A stretch of 44,161 bases of DNA from Limisphaerales bacterium (GCA_003140275.1 PLJQ01000069.1:1-44161), one strand, 5' to 3'. Positions 4,993 through 44,161 are shown, counted from the first letter of the stretch. Numbers and translations are program-made. The notes: generated by a model not told the origin, from the letters alone.

Positions 4993-6537
4993 TCAGGTCG
5001 TGATGATTTCTTCTATAATGTGGCCATGAACATCTGTCAACCGGCGGTCGATGCCGTTGTGGCGGAAGGTCAGTTTGCTGTGGTCGATGCCGAGCAGGCG
5101 CAACACCGTCGCGTGAACGTCGTAGCAATAGGTCGGGTTCACTGCCGCTTTGTAAGACCACTCGTCACTTTCGCCGTAGCTCACGCCGCCTTTGACGCCG
5201 CCGCCGGCGAGCCACGTCGTGAACGTGAACGGATTGTGATCGCGTCCTTTCGCGCCTTGACTGCACGGCATACGACCAAATTCCGTCGTCCACAGCACGA
5301 CGGTGTCGTCGAGCAGGCCGCGAACTTTGAGGTCTTTGATGAGCGCCGCTGCCGGTTTGTCCATGCTGGTTGCCATGTCGAGATGGTCCCGGGCCAAATC
5401 TTCGTGGCTGTCCCAGTTGCGGCGGGGAAAACCGTTGTCCGCGCCGCTCCAAAGTTGGACAAAGCGGACGCCGCGTTCGAGCAGCCGGCGGGCGATCAAA
5501 CAGCTCCGCCCAAAATCCCCGGTGATTTTTTCATCGAGACCATAAAGTGATTTCGTGGCGTCGGACTCGCCGGACAGGTCCATCACCTCCGGCGCGCTGA
5601 GTTGCAGCTTGGCGGCGAGTTCGAAGGAGGCAATGCGGGCGTCGAGCCGCGAATCACCGTCCCGGGTGGCGAGATGCTGCTGGTTCAATTTTTGCAGCAA
5701 CGCCAGTCCGTCCTTCTCGCTCTGTGGAGTGATGAACTTGGCCGAGTCCGGCGGGAACAGGTCGAAAATTGGATTGGGTTTTCCGACGCGAATCATCGTG
5801 CCTTGATGCGCGGCGGGCAGAAAACCGGAACTCCAATTGGCCGGGCCGTTCGGCGCGAAGCCGCGCGGGTCGGGCAGCACAACGAACGTTGGCAGGTTGT
5901 TATTCAGGCTGCCGAGGCCGTAGGAAATCCAGGCCCCCATGTGCGGAAAGCCGGGCAGCACAAACCCGGTATTCTGCATGTAAGTTGCCGGGCCGTGGAC
6001 GTTCGATTTGCTGATCATGGAATGAATGAAGGCGATGTCGTCGGCGCACGAGCCAATGTGCGGAACGAGGTTGTTGATCCATTTGCCGCATTGGCCATAC
6101 TGTTTCCAGTTCCACGGACTTTTCATGCAATTGCCCGGATTGCTTTGAAACAGTTCCACCTTTTCGCCGGGATCAAATTTTTCACCGTGACGTTTGATCA
6201 GCGCAGGTTTGTAATCAAACGTGTCGCACTGGCTGGCGGCGCCAGACATGAAAAGTTGCACGACCCGCTTCGCCTTGGCGGGATGATGCAGTCCTTTCAA
6301 GACGCCTGCCGTGGTCGCGCTCGGAGGAGCGCGGGAGGAATCTATTTCCGCGGCGAGCAAACCTTCCGTTGCCAGCAGATGCGTGAGCGCAATGCCGCCC
6401 AGCCCGCCGCCGAAACGCCAGAGAAACTCACGGCGGTCGATGAGGCTCGTATCTTCCGCACCAAGCGACATGGGGCTTTCTTGCGAGGAGCAAACGTGAC
6501 AGTTATTTGGGTTCATGGCTGCGGTTTCCTCAATCAA
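4993..6537 (-). CDS. DUF1501 domain-containing protein (sulfatase-fold, Tat-signal)
   Basis: It has a twin-arginine-like leader, DRREFLWRFGGGLGGIALTHLLA. The body is typical of PVC DUF1501 proteins (...WDSHEDL...TTEFGRMP...GRDHNP...). It lies directly downstream of a DUF1553 gene, which is the canonical pairing. The start is uncertain (6537 or the internal Met at 6516). Confidence 0.85.
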   Translation of the reverse strand: MIEETAAMNPNNCHVCSSQESPMSLGAEDTSLIDRREFLWRFGGGLGGIALTHLLATEGLLAAEIDSSRAPPSATTAGVLKGLHHPAKAKRVVQLFMSGAASQCDTFDYKPALIKRHGEKFDPGEKVELFQSNPGNCMKSPWNWKQYGQCGKWINNLVPHIGSCADDIAFIHSMISKSNVHGPATYMQNTGFVLPGFPHMGAWISYGLGSLNNNLPTFVVLPDPRGFAPNGPANWSSGFLPAAHQGTMIRVGKPNPIFDLFPPDSAKFITPQSEKDGLALLQKLNQQHLATRDGDSRLDARIASFELAAKLQLSAPEVMDLSGESDATKSLYGLDEKITGDFGRSCLIARRLLERGVRFVQLWSGADNGFPRRNWDSHEDLARDHLDMATSMDKPAAALIKDLKVRGLLDDTVVLWTTEFGRMPCSQGAKGRDHNPFTFTTWLAGGGVKGGVSYGESDEWSYKAAVNPTYCYDVHATVLRLLGIDHSKLTFRHNGIDRRLTDVHGHIIEEIITT

Positions 6538-9500
6538 TAAACAAAAACTCGTTACTGTTGAAGATCAGGCGGCAAAGATTCGGCAGCCCATATTTTTGCG
6601 CGTAAGCGACAAGGAGTTTCGATTCGTCACCACGCGGCTGGCGGTTTAACGCCAGTTGATAAGCCGCCCCGATCTGCTTCGATGGATTGTTGCTCATGCT
6701 GCTGATGCGCTCGGCGAAGTGTTCCGTTTGTTTGAGGACGAATGGGTCGTTCAGCAACGCCAGCGCCTGGAGTGCGGTGATGGTGGTGTTGCGTCGTGGC
6801 GTGAGCAACGACGGATCGGCGCTGTCGAGGCAATCCATGAACGGATCGGGCACGCTGCGCACAATGAACCGGTAAATGCTGCGACGATAACTTCCCGCGC
6901 TGTCCACATCAAAGCGCGTGTAATCGTACACTGGCGAATGATCGTCCTTGAAATAAAACTGCTGAACGGACGGGCCGCCCATCATCGGGTCGAGCTTGCC
7001 GTTGACAAACAAAATGGCGTCGCGCACGGACTCGGCGTCGAGGCGTTGCCGGTTCATACGCCAGAGGAAACGGTTGTCGCCATCGGTGTGCGCGTATTGA
7101 GGATTGTTGGCGGAGGATTGACGGTAAGTCGAGCTGGTGACGATGAGCTTGTGCAGTTGTTTCAGTGATTCGCCGTTGTCAAGAAACCAGTAAGCGAGCC
7201 AATCCAGCAGTTCGGGATGAGTCGGCAACGAGCCCATGTGGCCAAAGTCGTTGGGAGTATCAACGATGCCGCGACCGAAATGATACTGCCAGACGCGGTT
7301 GACGATGGAGCGGCGCGTCAAAAGATTTTTCGGATCAGTGATCCAATGGGCGAGCGCGGCACGCCGGCTGCCCTCGTTGTTTGAATCAACGCCCTCCAAA
7401 CGGTTGGCCAGACCGGCGAGGCATGAGAGCGCCGCCGGGGCCATGAGTTTGCCAGGTCGCTTCACATCGCCGCGGGAGAGCAGATGAACCGGTCGCGACT
7501 TTTCGACGGGATGAAAACTGCCTTCAGCGGCAAAATCATTCGCAGCGGCATAAACGATTTTCGGCGGCGGCAGTGTGGCGAACTGACTTTTCACTTCCGC
7601 CAAACGGTCAGTTGCTTCGCGAAGTTGGTTCTTCGCCGGCTCGTCCAGCAGCGCTCCCACCAGCGCTTTGCGTTCCCCTTCCAGTTGCGTCACGGTATCC
7701 TCGATTTCCTTCCGCTTCGCCTGGTGAGCATCGGATTCCTTCACGTCACCCAGGCGGTTGCGGCTGCTGAAATCGTCCACGAGAAATGCCTTGGCCCAGC
7801 GTCCACTTTCAATGGAATCGAGCGATGTGACCGTGGCGCCAAGGGCAACGTTTTTGTTTTTGGAAATGGCCTGTAGTTCGCTGAGCGCAAAAATATAATC
7901 CTTTGTGCGTTCCCAAAGTTTGGTGGCGGTCACCCGAATGAAACGCGCGCTGTGGTTGGTGGCGGAAATGACAACCGGTTTGTCCGACGGATTCGTAAAG
8001 TCCGCGGCGGTGTGATCGGCAAGCGCAGTCGGGTTCGCGAAGGTTGCGTCATCCGCCACGTCCAATCGGAAGCGCACCGGAAACCCAAATCCGGGCGTGT
8101 CGGCGAAGTCAGTGGGCCGGGCTGGAAACAGACGGATTTCATCGAGCGGCACACTTTTTCCAAGATCAACCTGCACCCATTTTAGAACGTCGGGGGAGGA
8201 TTCAATGCCGCTGTGGTACCCGTTGCCAGGGCTGGTTTTTGTTCGCTTGGGCAGCGACGCCAGCTTGACGTCTTGTTCCTTCAGTTTCACGTCCAGCTTT
8301 TCGATGTCAGGGCTGGTGACTTTGGCGACGATCTCGTTCAACGATTTTAGTTTGGCTTCGAGCGATTTCTTTTCAGTGTTCAATGTTTTGCGTTGCGCAA
8401 AAATCTTTTTGTCCGTGTCAAACTGCCGATTCGCGCGATCGACTCCGGCGAAGACTGCTTGCAGGCTGTAGTAATCCGCCTGCGTGATGGGGTCGAACTT
8501 GTGGTCGTGACAGCGCGCGCAATGTACTGTGAGACTCTGAAAGGTGGACATGGCCGTCATCACCATGTCATCGCGGTCATTGTAACGGGCGATCAAACCG
8601 TCGGTCTTGCTCTCGGGCAGTTCGACGTGACCGACAAAATCCCACGGGCCGGCAGCGATGAAACCCACGGCGGGAATTTTATCCGGTTCGTCAAGGAACA
8701 ACACGTCACCCGCCAATTGCTCCTGGACGAATCGCGAATAAGGCGTGTCATCGTTGAAAGATTTGATGACGTAATCGCGATACGGCCAGGCATTGAGACG
8801 CGGCTTGTCCTTGTCGTAGCCGTGGGATTCACCGTAATGAACGACATCGAGCCAGTGTCTTCCCCACCGCTCTCCGTAACGGGGTGAATCCAGAAGGCGA
8901 TCCACCAACAATTCGTAGCTGTCCGTCCGTCGGTCGGCGATGAAAGCGGCGACTTCCTCCGGTGTGGGTGGCAATCCGATCAGATCAAAGCTGAGGCGGC
9001 GAATCAGAGTCCGTCGGTCGGCTTCGGGCGACGGTTTCAACTTTTCCTTTTCCAATCGCGCCAGCACGAAATTGTCGATCGAATTGCGCACCCATTTTTT
9101 GTTTTGGACTTTTGGAATCGCCGGGCGACTGGCGGGTTGAAAGACCCAGTAATCGCTTTTCGCTTTGACCTTCGCCGCGTCGATGCCATCCGGCCATTGG
9201 GCGCCCTGGTCGATCCACGCGCGTAACAGTCCGATTTGCGCGGCAGTCAGGCGGTCGCCTTTGGGGGGCATCTGCAAGTCTTCCACGAGGCCGGCAACAA
9301 AATGAATCAACGAACTTTCGGCGCTCTTGCCGGGTAGAATGTCGCGACCGCGCTCGCCGCCTTTCAACGCGCCGGTTTTGACATCGAGTCGAAACTCGGA
9401 TTTCTGTTTTTCCGGGCCGTGACACTTGTAACAGTTGGCTTCGAAGATGGGTCGGATGTCTTTGACAAACTCGACAGGCCTGGCGAACGGAGGCGGCAGT

Positions 9501-39953: not shown

Positions 39954-40116
39954 GGAGCCTGCGGCGGCAACGTTTTCCCTTCCGGCCCTCATCCTCGGGG
40001 GAGGGCGTGAGCTGGTCCACTTGCGCTCGGGCCTTCGCCACCGCAACACTCGTTGTTTCATGGGCGGGCTGCCGCGCCCGTCCGAATTCAGTTGGGAAAT
40101 CCGCGCGTTCATGGAT

Positions 40117-40566
40117 TCATGAACTGGATTGGAGTTTCGTTTTGACGCGGTTCAACAACTCCTGATACGGCCCGCGTCTGTAGTGGATTGGCTGCGCTTC
40201 TTCCACGGAACGGTCGCCCACATCGCGCACCATGAATGCCTCGCAGTGCAGCAAATGTGTGCCGTTGTTCTGGACATCGACGTGGATAATCACGCGGATC
40301 GTCACACCGGAGTCCCAGCCACCGTAAGCCAGGTTGTTCACCGCGCCGCCGGGCTTTTCAAAGGTCGCCGCCAGAACGGAATTAGTCTTCAAGCGATAGC
40401 CGTTTTCCTTGAAAACCTCGACCGTCGCCTGCCTGATTTCGGCACCCGTGCGTCCGTCAATCTCCACCCAGGCGAGACTGCCCTGGCCCGCTGGTGGCGG
40501 CGTCTGACAACCGGCCAGGAACAACAATGCAAGCAGCAGACCCAGGAGGAAGATAAAAGATTTCAT
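40117..40566 (-). CDS. Hypothetical lipoprotein
   Basis: The lipobox is in MKSFIFLLGLLLALLFLAGC|QTPP. I recognise no family. Confidence 0.7.
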   Translation of the reverse strand: MKSFIFLLGLLLALLFLAGCQTPPPAGQGSLAWVEIDGRTGAEIRQATVEVFKENGYRLKTNSVLAATFEKPGGAVNNLAYGGWDSGVTIRVIIHVDVQNNGTHLLHCEAFMVRDVGDRSVEEAQPIHYRRGPYQELLNRVKTKLQSSS

Positions 40567-40572
40567 GCGGTT

Positions 40573-40773
40573 TCACTTGGTGCGATTTAACAGTTCTGAT
40601 GCGGGTTCATCGGCGGGGTTTTGGGGGACGAGTTTGCCCGCGAAGGCGCGGGCGAGGAGGGAGGACGTGAGCTTGCAGACTTGCCCGCGCGCCTTGGCCA
40701 ACCGCACTTCAAGCTGGTTGGCCAGCGCAAACAATCCCTCCACTCGCCGCACGATTTCCTGTTCTTCAACCAT
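40573..40773 (-). pseudogene. hsdS: hsdS C-terminal conserved-region fragment (66 codons)
   Basis: MVEEQEIVRRVEGLFALANQLEVRLAKARGQVCKLTSSLLARAFAGKLVPQNPADEPASELL aligns almost residue-for-residue with the tail of the intact HsdS at 41590-42921 (LPEQQVIVRRVEGLFALADQLEVRLAKARGQVGKLTPSLLALAFAGQLVPQDLSDEPAEKLL). No target-recognition domain precedes it. Confidence 0.65.
40621..40763. repeat. Direct repeat, distal copy (hsdS 3' conserved region)
   Basis: This 143-nt stretch matches 41668-41810 with about a dozen mismatches by hand count (roughly 92%). Weaker similarity continues to about 40590 / 41637. Confidence 0.85.
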
Positions 40774-41587
40774 CTTCCGCTCCTGAAATGTTTGTGCCCG
40801 TTCCAGAGCCGATAATGAATTCGGCCGACGATAACTGTCCTGACGATGACACAGACAAGTTTGCTCTCACTTGTTTAGTCACGTCGTAGTTCAAATTCTT
40901 CACGGCAGCGTTCCATGACACTGGCCTCCAACCATGCTTCGCTGGCATGCTCTTTCGGAGATCTGCAAAGCACCGCTCCAACCGCGCTTCGAGTTCGCGC
41001 AGTATCTTTGAGACTCCCGTGGAAACGAACTCAAAGTCGGTAGATTTAAGTTCTTGCCAGAGCATTTTATCGTTCCAGTGCTTTGGCGTTTCTCCTAGTG
41101 CTGGAACAGCGAGAGCGTTGTAAACCCACTTCATTGGGACTTTAGGCCCGTGCAGCACGATGTGTCGATCCTTCCAATACTCGTCAAAAGGCTTGAGCAA
41201 GTCGGGCCTGTCCAATTCTCCCGCGACAGCTTTCACCATGTCATGTATTCGGCCCATGTGTGAATGGAACGCCATCCAAAGATTGAGGTTCTGCGCATAG
41301 CTCCTGAAGCCCGTAATCTCGGTGATTTTGTGCAGGTCGTCCTCGATCTCCCAACATAGGGCAAGGCTCTCCAGAATTGTGTAAATGCGCTGCCATTGCT
41401 TTTCACGTGAATCGAGGACCTCCCGCTCCACGCCAGCCATCGGTAGCGCGTGTGCATGCCCATCATTGCCGATATATTCCGCCCAGACTTTCGCATAGGA
41501 GGGGATCACCGCCGCAATCCGGTCAGCAAATTGTTGCTCAACCAAGTCACCGTCTGATTTCAGTTTTACAATTGTTTCTTCCGACAT
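40766..41587 (-). CDS. Uncharacterised 273-aa protein embedded in the type I R-M locus; candidate HEPN-like (R-x4-H) defence effector
   Basis: The start is taken at MSEETIVKLKSDG (ATG 41585-41587), 2 nt after the hsdS stop. The composition looks helical. There is a single KDRHIVLHG motif (R141..H146, nt 41150-41167). The C-terminal tail is Ser/Gly-rich. Calling it a CDS is fairly safe, but the functional label is an inference. Confidence 0.65.
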   Translation of the reverse strand: MSEETIVKLKSDGDLVEQQFADRIAAVIPSYAKVWAEYIGNDGHAHALPMAGVEREVLDSREKQWQRIYTILESLALCWEIEDDLHKITEITGFRSYAQNLNLWMAFHSHMGRIHDMVKAVAGELDRPDLLKPFDEYWKDRHIVLHGPKVPMKWVYNALAVPALGETPKHWNDKMLWQELKSTDFEFVSTGVSKILRELEARLERCFADLRKSMPAKHGWRPVSWNAAVKNLNYDVTKQVRANLSVSSSGQLSSAEFIIGSGTGTNISGAEDG

Positions 41588-41589
41588 GG

Positions 41590-42921
41590 CTAATTGGCGT
41601 TTCGTTTCGAGTTTGTTTCGACACCGATGCACTCCAACAATTTCTCGGCTGGTTCGTCGCTGAGGTCTTGGGGGACGAGTTGGCCGGCGAAGGCGAGGGC
41701 GAGGAGGGAGGGCGTGAGTTTCCCCACTTGCCCGCGCGCCTTGGCCAACCGCACCTCAAGCTGGTCGGCAAGCGCAAACAATCCCTCCACTCGCCGCACG
41801 ATTACCTGTTGCTCGGGGAGCGGACAAATTCTGACTTCCAGTTTCCGAAGCTGCGTCGTGTTGATTCGTGGGCGAGTTGCACCGTGAACCTCCTCGACCA
41901 ACGTGTTGTAGGATTTCTGGCTGATGAGTTGGAAAACGAGATATTGCCGGTCAACCAATTCCAGATTCGGGCGCAAACAGAAACAGTCAGCTTTAGCGAC
42001 GGCCTTCGTTGACAACTTGGGCAGCACGCAAGCACGCACTTCTTCGGAGATGAACGAGGCGAAGATGATGTCTCCCTCACCCACCGTATGCCTTTTCAGC
42101 GTCTCGTATTTCTCCCGACTGATGAACGTCTCCTTCTCGCCGATAAACCGAAGCTGCCCGATGTTCTCCAAACGAACCACACGGACGCCAGACTCTGTGT
42201 AGTCGTCGCTTTTTAAATTCGAGCCGAACGGGCCGTCGAAGATTCCGCCCTTTGGAATGAGGTCTTCAACGGTTGTTTTTCGCCAGCCACGCGGCAGTTC
42301 ATCGTCTTGTAGGGTGTCCTCGGTTGGATTCTCCTCCCGCCAATCGGCGGTGAGGCGGCCGGAGCAGGCGGCGGCGAGGACGGATTGGCGAAAGCGCTTG
42401 AGCAGGACGGGAATCTTCGCCAGCCGCCGTTGGCTGGCGTCCACTTTGCCCAACAGCGTCTCCAGCTTCGCCACAATCCGCCGCTGCTCGGTGAGCGGAG
42501 CGAGGCGAACGGGAATCCGATTCATTGCTCCCTGCGTTAGCTTGAGGCGTGTCGTTCCATTCACGTATTCGTGAAAATCGAACCGATCCAGGAAGTGCTT
42601 GAGATACTGATTTGAAGAAACTCCCGACTTGGCGCTGAGAACGTGGGCATGGTTGTTAACCCAACTCTTGCCCCGAATGATGTAGGCGATGGGTTTTGAC
42701 TTGTCGAAGAATGGCGCACCGTCTTCGCCGATTAGCAAAAGCTCCGCATCGAACAAAGCTTTATCAATCCAACCAACTTGCCCTGTCGCGCCGTAGTAGG
42801 GCACATCACCTTCGCGCTTGGCACGTTCGTCTGAGTTAACGGGCACTCGCTGGTTATCGAGAACGTCCACACATTCTCGCAACTCGACTTCAGCCCACCC
42901 ATTCGGAAGCTCGTCGCTCAT
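41590..42921 (-). CDS. hsdS: Type I restriction-modification specificity subunit HsdS (two TRDs)
   Basis: The N-terminus reads LPNGWAEVELRECVDVLDNQRVPV. The central conserved helix is PLTEQRRIVAKLETLLGKVDASQRRLAKI...FRQSVLAAACSGRLT. The second TRD begins LPRGWRKTTVEDL. The C-terminal conserved helix is PLPEQQVIVRRVEGLFALADQLEVRLAKA. Confidence 0.9.
   Translation of the reverse strand: MSDELPNGWAEVELRECVDVLDNQRVPVNSDERAKREGDVPYYGATGQVGWIDKALFDAELLLIGEDGAPFFDKSKPIAYIIRGKSWVNNHAHVLSAKSGVSSNQYLKHFLDRFDFHEYVNGTTRLKLTQGAMNRIPVRLAPLTEQRRIVAKLETLLGKVDASQRRLAKIPVLLKRFRQSVLAAACSGRLTADWREENPTEDTLQDDELPRGWRKTTVEDLIPKGGIFDGPFGSNLKSDDYTESGVRVVRLENIGQLRFIGEKETFISREKYETLKRHTVGEGDIIFASFISEEVRACVLPKLSTKAVAKADCFCLRPNLELVDRQYLVFQLISQKSYNTLVEEVHGATRPRINTTQLRKLEVRICPLPEQQVIVRRVEGLFALADQLEVRLAKARGQVGKLTPSLLALAFAGQLVPQDLSDEPAEKLLECIGVETNSKRNAN
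41668..41810. repeat. Direct repeat, proximal copy (inside the 3' end of the intact hsdS)
   Basis: See 40621-40763. The two copies are 1047 nt apart and in the same orientation. Confidence 0.85.
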
Positions 42922-42945
42922 TTCCCCACGCCTCCGTTCGTGCTT

Positions 42946-43144
42946 GTCCCGCAGGGGCGCCCGAAAATAGCCCAGCGATTTATCGCTGGGTTAACGTGCC
43001 CCCAAATCCTCCAAGCCCCCGAGGGGCGAAAGAAAATGTCGGAGAACAAATCCGGGTTCTGTCGTCCCCGACGGGACTCGTGCCGTTTTCGCACCGAAAC
43101 CCACCGTTGAAACGGTGGGCTATTTTCGTTCGTCCCTACGGGAC
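42946..43144. repeat. REP/MITE-like element: two inverted ~85-nt hairpin-rich units
   Basis: Unit 1 (plus orientation, from 42946) reads gtcccgcaggggcgcccgaaaatagCCCAGCGAtttaTCGCTGGGtt... Unit 2 (minus orientation, from 43144) reads gtcccgtagggacgaacgaaaatagCCCACCGTttcaACGGTGGGtt... The 8-bp stems at 42971-42990 and 43100-43119 differ at two positions with compensatory changes. Extra 5-bp GC hairpins lie at 43015-43027, 43064-43077 and 43132-43144. Confidence 0.65.
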
Positions 43145-43162
43145 GTTGAAAGCGAGCAAGGT

Positions 43163-43471
43163 TCATACGCGTTTCTTCCAATGGCGGTCATGCCGGGCGG
43201 CATGGAGCACGGCGGCAATAACCACGAGGTTTTCCGTTTCGATGACTTCGTAAATCACGCGATAAGGAAAGCGCTGCGGGTAGCGCCAACGGATATTCTT
43301 CCGAGGGTGCTGTCGGCAGTTCAGAAGCGGGTTGTCCGCCAGTGCGTCGAGAACCTGAATCAGCGCCTCGCGGAATTCAGTGCCCAGTCCTTCCTGCCGG
43401 GCTTCATACCATTCAGCAGCGTCGGCGATGTCGCCTTGCGCTTCCGGGCGAACCACCACGCGCCAGTTCAT
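43163..43471 (-). CDS. Type II toxin, ParE/RelE superfamily
   Basis: The sequence MNWRVVVRPEAQGDIADAAEWYEARQEGLGTEF...FPYRVIYEVIETENLVVIAAVLHAARHD fits the ParE-like pattern (..A..Dl..i..y... / .PY.iiY.v....v.i.av.H..r.). It is about 100 aa and overlaps the upstream antitoxin by 4 nt. Confidence 0.8.
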   Translation of the reverse strand: MNWRVVVRPEAQGDIADAAEWYEARQEGLGTEFREALIQVLDALADNPLLNCRQHPRKNIRWRYPQRFPYRVIYEVIETENLVVIAAVLHAARHDRHWKKRV

Positions 43472-43677
43472 GTTTGAGAGCGAAGGCGGCGCTTCATTTC
43501 TTCCAGCGGCACGGAGGAATCGGGATTGGCCCGGTGAGCCGCCAGACGAGATTCGACCAGCGCCTCGTCGGCTTCCGAGAGTGGCAGGTCTTCCAGTTCC
43601 AACAGCTTGCCGAACACGGCCCGGCGCTCGGTCTCTGTCAGCTTGGGCAGTTCGTTGATGATTTCGGTCGCGCTCAT
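43468..43677 (-). CDS. Antitoxin, 'putative addiction module component' family
   Basis: It is 69 aa and reads MSATEIINELPKLTETERRAVFGKLLELEDLPLSEADEALVESRLAAHRANPDSSVPLEEM. That matches the typical L..L...ER..L...L..SL... / R......p......eev layout. It has an ATGA overlap with the toxin gene. Confidence 0.75.
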   Translation of the reverse strand: MSATEIINELPKLTETERRAVFGKLLELEDLPLSEADEALVESRLAAHRANPDSSVPLEEMKRRLRSQT

Positions 43678-43756: not shown

Positions 43757-44161
43757 TCATCTCTCCACGCCCTCTTCCTTTTCCACCAGCGCGACAATTT
43801 CCCGGAGGTCCTCCACCACGGCTTCGAGTTCGGTGATGGCTTCGGCGGCGAGGTCCTGTGGTTCGGGCAATTCGTCGGCGTCTTCGAGCGAGTCGTCCTT
43901 GAGCCAGATGACATCGAGCTTGTAGCCGCGTTCCTTGATGTCAGAGATATGGAACTTGCGGAAGCGCCCAGTCTCGCCGCCATCGGTCCGTTTGCTCAAG
44001 CCGTTGGGGTCTTTGCCGTAGGCTTTTTCAAATTCTTCAAAGTGCGCCGCCGTGAGCGGGCGGTCTTTCTTGGTGATGCCGGGGACGTTGGTGCGGGCGT
44101 CGTAAATCCACACGGTCTTGGTCGGCGTCCCCTTGGTGAAGAAGACGACGTTCGCCTTGAC
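43757..44161 (-). CDS. hsdM: Type I R-M DNA methyltransferase HsdM, C-terminal 134 codons (the gene continues beyond the right edge)
   Basis: The frame is open from the window edge: VKANVVFFTKGTPTKTVWIYDARTNVPGITKKDRPLTAAHFEEFEKAYG...YKLDVIWLKDDSLEDADELPEP. This is the characteristic HsdM C-terminal tail, and it lies upstream of hsdS on the same strand. Confidence 0.85.
   Translation of the reverse strand, partial: VKANVVFFTKGTPTKTVWIYDARTNVPGITKKDRPLTAAHFEEFEKAYGKDPNGLSKRTDGGETGRFRKFHISDIKERGYKLDVIWLKDDSLEDADELPEPQDLAAEAITELEAVVEDLREIVALVEKEEGVER

Follow-up and report, generated by a model that had tools for sequence, protein, structure and literature searches.

Here we analyse the 3'-end of hsdS, the gene of the specificity subunit of a type I restriction-modification (R-M) system, in a stretch of 44,161 nucleotides (nt) from Limisphaerales bacterium (GCA_003140275.1 PLJQ01000069.1:1-44161), which we call the window. 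Some described systems resemble what we found there. Downstream of rhs and cdiA genes there are orphan toxin/immunity arrays, which Poole and colleagues in 2011 and Koskiniemi and colleagues in 2014 reportedly described; a conserved piece of the main gene is said to be repeated downstream, each repeat marking a displaced module, and new modules are said to enter beside the main gene by homologous recombination, without a dedicated recombinase, whereas the older ones move distally and decay. Integrons are arrays of single genes with a repeated element after each of them. When an island enters a tRNA gene, it brings a replacement 3'-end, the target remains intact and the original 3'-end forms a direct repeat beyond the insert. 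The hsdS genes themselves are rearranged in invertons and shufflons and by the movement of target recognition domains (TRDs), where inverted repeats, usually together with an invertase, and silent copies with TRDs lead to a new DNA specificity (PMC7672463, PMC4948785, PMC3077401). Finally, accessory defence genes can be embedded in type I operons, such as PrrC in EcoprrI (PMC12707154) and TgvAB in VPI-2 of Vibrio cholerae (PMC11411939).

In the window an intact hsdS is followed by the gene of a protein of 273 amino acids (aa), here called passenger 1, by an open reading frame (ORF) of 66 codons that resembles the end of hsdS, by a second passenger, which is a predicted lipoprotein gene, and by a decayed stub of an hsdS end (Table 1). 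We think it probable that displaced hsdS tails of this kind delimit cassettes that are moved by homologous recombination. The 66-codon ORF would be the displaced 3'-end of an earlier hsdS allele, encoding the coiled coil of its second conserved region (CR2). Homologous recombination would have brought in a segment formed by an hsdS 3'-end and a passenger, crossing over in the conserved stretch that codes for CR2; the new CR2 would now complete the working hsdS, and the resident one would have been displaced downstream of the passenger. The window would hold two such layers, hsdS, passenger 1 and CR2 tail, and then the lipoprotein gene and CR2 stub; of the two tails, the outer one has decayed further. 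Each passenger, several of them of defence or conflict type, would have a direct copy of the CR2 segment of around 190 nt after it. Since this segment is conserved among hsdS genes, the copies may act as portable homology arms, and genomes would need no dedicated recombinase to acquire cassettes, swap them with one another or lose them by loop-out. The gene hsdM, upstream in the same operon, would likely be the left-hand homology region for the exchange of alleles or cassettes. We infer that the bracket of the window itself arose by homologous entry of a cassette, the recombination presumably being of the host RecA type and the proximal position presumably being the entry point.

The repeat search gave one direct-repeat family, whose two copies are 163 nt long, 89% identical and spaced by 1047 nt. 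Within them, the 143-nt segments at 40621-40763 and 41668-41810 differ at exactly 12 positions (91.6% identity), the same number that an earlier note on this DNA had counted approximately by hand. The longest exact runs between the copies are 33, 29 and 15 nt. Ungapped similarity is lost beyond around 40596-40769; upstream it ends a few bases ahead of the 'GAACAGGAAATCGTG' start, and on the 3' side it tapers gradually. The corresponding repeat pair of an independent assembly gave a BLASTN E-value of 3.8e-54, and the same arrangement is present in contigs of other samples and assemblers with 99.3-100% identity; therefore, it is not an assembly artefact.

The proximal copy encodes the C-terminal conserved part of an intact HsdS, in which both conserved regions, CR1 and CR2, are recognisable, the consensus tail aligning also to 42307-42498. 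The 66-aa ORF aligns to positions 381-442 of the 462 positions of the PADLOC Specificity_I model and lacks a TRD. These matches, together with the repeat, support the identification of this ORF as a displaced hsdS 3'-end. The ATG of passenger 1 is placed 2 nt beyond the hsdS TAG, and its TGA overlaps the ATG of the tail ORF as ATGGTTGA, with AGGAG 6 nt upstream of this ATG. Thus the earlier note had described correctly the tail fragment, the conserved end of the working gene and the 822-nt ORF placed between the repeats with its stop inside the start of the tail. The two tails share 92% identity over the conserved core but much less over the 3' extension, and this uneven similarity fits two related alleles better than a recent duplication in situ. 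It agrees with the recombination scar at the conserved region that the note had proposed, and not with a repeat that arose by chance, as do the related loci and the exchange between two of them that we present below.

The third copy is a stub of 42-48 nt in the same orientation as both tails. It reads 'VAVAKARAQVDQLTPS', where the family consensus is 'VRLAKARGQVDKLTPS', and shares 33/42 and 34/42 nt with the two tails; among 200 shuffled windows the maximum was 29/42, and no other site of the window reaches 30/42. In tblastn the stub had an E-value of 0.001 and the next match, a chance one, 0.36. As the stub lies directly downstream of the lipoprotein gene, this gene becomes a second bracketed passenger and the right edge of the hsd island shifts from 40573 to around 40000. 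The empty site that had been predicted, hsdS followed directly by the lipoprotein gene, is consequently probably wrong.

Regarding other loci, the bracket recurs in related type I systems, which are probably verrucomicrobial, as are those with a name. The order hsdS, 273-aa gene and tail was found with three kinds of junction. Type A is that of the window. In type B (L010, L012-14 and L029) the remnant begins with 'ADQIE' and there is a common 1-nt deletion; the homology of L010 and L012 ends exactly at the stop codon of the orphan tail. In type C (L021/22) the remnant begins a few codons ahead of CR2 and has one frameshift. The three types differ by up to around 70 nt.

The tails also follow other passengers. 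In L017, hsdS is followed by a HEPN_AbiU2 gene (E = 5.5e-21), an orphan tail and then a 273-aa homologue. L045 has hsdM, hsdS, AbiU2, a tail, a 421-aa gene, a tail, a 434-aa gene and again a tail, the tail ORFs and the passenger genes overlapping at their starts and stops. L048/49 have four tails, with DUF4231, SEC-C/DUF4407 (with a ParE-like end) and DUF6519 genes in between. L050 carries hsdR, FRG, hsdM, hsdS, a 331-aa gene, a tail and ThuA, and in L051 the same cassette is next to degraded hsd genes, with an additional decayed stub past ThuA. Altogether, a bracket of direct CR2 repeats downstream of an intact hsdS is present in the window, L010, L012-14, L017, L021/22, L029, L045 and L050/51, and it surrounds at least six to eight unrelated passenger genes. 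Searching with the window tail, we found 202 tail-only ORFs that resemble it at E <= 1e-5; the best 120 of the 202 are 59-115 aa long and 67-87% identical to the window tail, and among these 120 at least 26 come from contigs no shorter than 5 kb. Nearly all the tail-only ORFs begin at the CR2 boundary, their N-termini being grouped, to within a few residues, around 'EQQEIVRRVEGLF', with which CR2 starts.

All the available contigs of the window locus are one haplotype, and the boundaries of exchanged tracts are readable only in other loci. The clearest pair is L050 and L051. Their 331-aa passengers show 2 differences in around 1000 nt (99.8% identical) between flanks that are 15-20% diverged, whereas the proximal tails have 15 differences, the last at 5980, and the distal tails 10 differences, the first at 7073. 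The downstream flank has 10-27 differences per 100 nt, and no alignment is possible upstream of the proximal tail. The synonymous divergence (dS) is 0.5 for ThuA and 0.004 for the passenger. The recently shared tract therefore runs from the end of one tail into the interior of the other, a pattern that points to homologous exchange with the tails as arms. A weaker case is that of L017 and L018, where the block of tail and 273-aa gene is 92% identical, hsdM is 81% identical and the AbiU2 cassette differs between the loci; here the similarities suggest tract boundaries within the CR2 copies. In L051 (3856-6006) the hsd genes are degraded: fragments of 190 aa (hsdM) and 156 aa (hsdS) are left on either side of a PemK toxin gene. 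The neighbouring passenger cassette and its tails are intact and nearly the same as in L050, so that the cassette appears to have outlasted its host R-M system.

Compared with the described systems, the rhs/cdiA orphan modules appear to be the closest in behaviour and the integrons the closest in the logic of the array. The hsdS tails share with the former the repeated piece of the main gene that marks each displaced module, the entry beside the main gene by homologous recombination, the distal decay and the lack of a dedicated recombinase. However, the modules of the hsdS locus are whole unrelated genes and not alternative C-terminal domains, and the main gene is the specificity subunit of an R-M system. 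With integrons they share a co-oriented array of promoterless-looking single genes of varied function, with a repeated element after each, and an entry that is likely proximal to the platform. Unlike integrons, they have no intI integrase, since no integrase or recombinase gene was found among the called genes of L053 (a longer contig of the window's locus), L045 or L050; the repeat is an in-frame hsdS coding sequence instead of an attC palindrome and shows no general single-strand fold; and the boundaries of exchange are scattered over the repeat, as homologous recombination would leave them. The tRNA-gene islands are alike in the replaced 3'-end and in the original one kept as a direct repeat beyond the insert, but they use a site-specific integrase encoded by the island, which is not present here, where the insert is a single gene. 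In the hsdS invertons the conserved regions of hsdS are also recombination substrates and partial hsdS copies also lie beside the expressed gene. Nevertheless, the repeats of the window are direct, the copies have no TRD, foreign genes are placed between them, the locus has no recombinase and the outcome would be the gain or loss of a passenger. Finally, as with PrrC and TgvAB, the passengers lie inside a type I operon, of which the window locus is a heavily loaded example, but in those reports we found no description of embedded genes that are arrayed or delimited by repeated hsdS 3'-ends.

A full-text literature search, of incomplete coverage, gave invertons, TRD movement and embedded genes but no published description of tail-delimited cassette arrays. 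The architecture is recurrent and apparently undescribed. The arrival and movement of embedded genes such as PrrC and TgvAB are largely unexplained, and hsdS tails acting as homology arms would offer a concrete and testable route, in which any genome with a compatible hsdS would be a landing site and no mobile-element machinery would be needed. This route would also explain the many short fragments annotated as "restriction endonuclease subunit S". Furthermore, the genes between hsdS and an orphan hsdS tail would be enriched candidates for new defence functions, the 273-aa family included. More tentatively, we suggest a wider possibility, namely that the CR2 end of hsdS is an integron-like platform free of recombinase. 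Units of a defence or conflict gene plus an hsdS tail would travel between type I loci, enter beside hsdS and push the older cassettes outward, and the tails would be kept because intact arms spread better, and possibly also because they are translated as CR2 helices. This might then be a general, undescribed mechanism for embedded defence genes.

Several observations weigh against cassettes delimited by displaced tails. At the window's own locus the event itself was not observed, as no deletion or empty-site variant appeared among the 13 contigs of the window population. The window tails are each other's nearest relatives (80% identity over 198 nt, and at most 74% to any other tail), which is compatible with a local duplication or with gene conversion within the locus. 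The distal tail is not universal either, because in L016-L020 the passenger follows hsdS and there is no distal tail. Moreover, displaced tails do not account for the first junction of passenger and tail, and random illegitimate joining would not lead us to expect junctions placed so regularly at the CR2 start across many cassettes. The orthologous orphan tails of L010 and L012 have a ratio of nonsynonymous to synonymous substitutions (dN/dS) of 0.26 at a dS of around 1, which suggests either a constraint on the peptide or a repeated replacement from functional tails, as orphans that are replaced by functional tails during exchange would show a low ratio too. Lastly, the sampling is limited, the organisms are uncultured and their named taxonomy is sparse.

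The constraint on the peptide leads to the first alternative, in which the orphan tails are functional micro-proteins. A free CR2 helix would be translated by coupling to the passenger and could modulate the assembly of HsdM and HsdS or dock the passenger onto the R-M complex, and such a role would explain why the tail is kept. The AGGAG in front of the window tail and the overlap of its ATG with the passenger stop are in line with this, as are the overlapping ORFs of L045 and the low dN/dS of the L010/L012 pair. So are the more than 200 intact tail-only ORFs that begin at the CR2 boundary, an abundance that bears in part on the possibility, raised in the earlier note, of the 66-codon ORF being a conserved independent gene; nevertheless, the tails resemble mildly decaying copies of functional tails. 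Of the 53 core positions, 3-12 depart from the family consensus in orphan tails and 1-4 in hsdS-borne tails (in the window, 7/53 for the orphan and 4/53 for the proximal tail), so the orphans carry around three times more deviations, some of them non-conservative, as expected for displaced copies. Among the orphans found through the passenger family, those of L021/22 are frameshifted and those of type B are without the first 18 codons or so, L010 having only a distant ATG and L012-14/L029 no evident start. The passenger also does without a distal tail in L016-20, the distal stubs of the window and L051 are plainly decayed, and dN/dS is only mildly below 1 in L050/L051 (0.5) and in the window pair (0.53), where the value is uninformative. 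Weighing the signs of a remnant and those of constraint, we place displaced tails as homology arms first, and keep the translated micro-protein as an unlikely but live rival.

A purely local event is the second alternative. Either the hsdS 3'-end would have been copied in situ, or the passenger would have entered an already duplicated end by illegitimate insertion; the copies would then have diverged and taken no part in later recombination. The mutual closeness of the window tails would follow from it, their dN/dS is compatible with one drifting copy, and neither exchange nor deletion variants occur in the window population. However, the divergence along the repeat is far from even, being low in the core and high in the 3' extension, the bracket recurs with unrelated passengers and several junction types, and the exchange boundaries of L050/L051 fall in the tails. 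We consequently give this explanation only a small chance.

It is very improbable that an integron-like site-specific system is at work, in which a recombinase would recognise a site at the CR2 start, possibly as folded single-stranded DNA, and place cassettes there. Many independent cassettes do have their junction no more than a few codons away from the CR2 start, and the window distal tail folds unusually well as single-stranded DNA: over 40640-40775 the fold is far above that of shuffles (z = -3.3 and -3.9, by strand). Nevertheless, this fold is peculiar to the window distal copy, the 20 other tails having z near 0 (group difference p = 0.054), neither the window locus nor L045 nor L050 has an integrase or recombinase gene inside it or next to it, the L050/L051 transitions are at differing internal positions of the tails and not at one site, and the junction types are up to around 70 nt apart. 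An attC-like structure as a property of the tail family was thus rejected, since of 21 tails the window distal copy alone folds unusually well. The folded segment contains an inner perfect 9-nt inverted repeat (TGGCCAACC...GGTTGGCCA), has no counterpart in the proximal copy and 19 other tails, and is possibly due to chance.

The last alternative concerns loop-out between the tails, which the earlier note expected to delete passenger 1 and to swap the HsdS tail. This part is feasible, as there are exact runs of 33 and 29 nt in direct repeats and the predicted product is an in-frame hybrid HsdS of 433 aa, but no such deletion was seen. The 13 contigs either contain the cassette or break inside the shared run of 33 nt, which is the usual behaviour of de Bruijn assembly at repeats; two Logan contigs begin inside this run common to both tails, as the branching of a k = 31 graph predicts, and L011, an independent scaffold of the same genome, has a gap of 10 N inside the distal tail at around 1396-1410 (window 40623-40652). 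This gap and the Logan starts are assembly breaks caused by the repeat and not structural variants. The hsdS cluster at 90% identity has a single member, and no hybrid HsdS was found in the protein collection. Mismatches depress recombination, an established property of RecA and mismatch-repair systems, and the 11% mismatch between the copies should lower it. A phase-variable form of the on/off switch suggested in the note, with frequent RecA-mediated loop-out toggling the passenger and swapping the tail, is hardly credible, because loop-out is a one-way deletion that nothing suggests to be reversible and that is irreversible within a lineage, every contig long enough to tell retains the cassette, the hybrid is absent, and known hsdS phase variation relies on inverted repeats (PMC7672463), of which none involving the CR2 copies was found in the window, where all three copies are direct.

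Regarding passenger 1, it had been taken for an ORFan, but we found 34 close homologues, and at E <= 0.001 the family counts 332 representative clusters, so this name has to be dropped. The family is often at the 3'-end of R-M operons and, in the clade closest to the window gene, most often directly after hsdS. It has seven invariant residues, among them R141 and H146, which form an Rx4H motif that is invariant in 30 close and 40 distant members. The AlphaFold2 model is all helical, with a predicted template modelling score of 0.75. The protein has no match in Pfam, PADLOC, NCBIfam or PHROG, a profile search of PDB sequences gave nothing, and Pfam scans of 40 diverse members gave noise only and no HEPN family. 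Foldseek with the model gave no match at E <= 0.001 in PDB and BFVD, helical bundles being hard cases for this program. A comparison with an AbiU2 protein by hhalign was negative, with a probability of 4.9%. From the Rx4H motif and the genomic context, the passenger may be HEPN-like, and the same motif makes it a putative defence effector.

Other homologues of passenger 1 are placed after a type III-like methyltransferase, after a class II ribonucleotide reductase, after ParE and in a relaxase region. In these non-hsdS contexts there are no flanking repeats, so a duplication of the target end is not a general property of the passenger and the bracket is tied to hsdS rather than to the 273-aa gene. 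In L002-L005 (8001-8813) a homologue with 57% identity lies 28 nt past an 838-aa N6_N4_Mtase gene, without flanking repeats, and its operon also has a ResIII helicase and an SLFN/AlbA_2-HATPase_c_4 gene; therefore, the family travels also with a type III-like R-M or defence system. ParE pairs adjoin the homologues in the unrelated loci L002/3/5 and L008/9. One member is on an IMG/VR-listed viral contig, beside a ribonucleotide reductase gene, and no plasmid match was found. A programmed frameshift that would join passenger and tail was also discarded. The window and L010 do have their tail in the +1 frame, but no slippery site is present, and the window shows a plain ATG restart.

Table 1. Features of the hsd region in the window (positions counted from its first nucleotide).
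Feature	Position	Strand	Evidence or remark
hsdM, 3' part	43757..44161	-	truncated by the window end; N6_Mtase match
parD-like antitoxin	43468-43677	-	PF09720, E = 2.3e-4, score slightly under the Pfam cutoff
parE toxin	43163-43471	-	PF05016 ParE_toxin, E = 4.1e-12
hsdS, intact, 443 aa, TRD1-CR1-TRD2-CR2	41590..42921	-	PF01420 Methylase_S, E = 1.6e-23, two stretches; NCBIfam type I S subunit, E = 2.4e-45
Proximal CR2 repeat copy, encoding the C-terminal conserved helix of the working HsdS	41648..41810	-	repeat search, alignment
Passenger 1 (the former "ORFan"), 273 aa, uncharacterised all-alpha family	40766..41587	-	273 codons + stop = 822 nt
Orphan hsdS CR2 tail ORF, 66 aa	40573..40773	-	PADLOC Specificity_I C-terminus, E = 6.5e-21
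Distal CR2 repeat copy, 163 nt	40601..40763	-	89% identity to 41648-41810
Passenger 2, predicted lipoprotein, 149 aa, N-terminal ...LLFLAGC	40117..40566	-	ORF; family matches weak only
Third, decayed CR2 stub 'VAVAKARAQVDQLTPS'	39999..40047	-	between the lipoprotein gene and the next gene; repeat search, tblastn, shuffles

Every gene of the hsd region is on the minus strand, and the parD/parE pair (43163-43677) is embedded between hsdM and hsdS. The contig L053 is 99.9% identical to the window, evidently comes from the same strain or population, and extends the order to hsdR, a caspase-like gene, a SIR2-like gene, hsdM, parD, parE, hsdS, the 273-aa gene, the tail and the lipoprotein gene. Its HsdR has 893 aa, with ResIII, Helicase_C (weak) and EcoEI_R_C, and the full HsdM of 473 aa (HsdM_N and N6_Mtase in L053) is found in L040 and L053, both 99.9% identical to the window. 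Beyond the window end, between hsdR and hsdM (L053 5056-7741), there is a caspase-like Peptidase_C14 gene (PADLOC 'caspase', E = 2.8e-16) and beside it the SIR2-like gene (PADLOC Aga_SIR2, E = 1.8e-19). Judging by its gene content, the window locus is a complete type I system, heavily loaded with embedded genes of conflict type. In related loci the slot upstream of hsdM holds a gene of around 280-380 aa (343 aa in L010, FRG in L050 and 379 aa in L045).

The 240-nt gap between parE and hsdS contains the Acido-Lenti-1 RNA motif (RF01687) twice, as an inverted pair at 42945-42990 (-) and 43100-43145 (+), with 40.1 and 51.3 bits for a gathering score of 37. These are the sole Rfam matches of the whole window and each of them scores as a terminator-like hairpin. 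The pair could mark a boundary of the parDE insertion.

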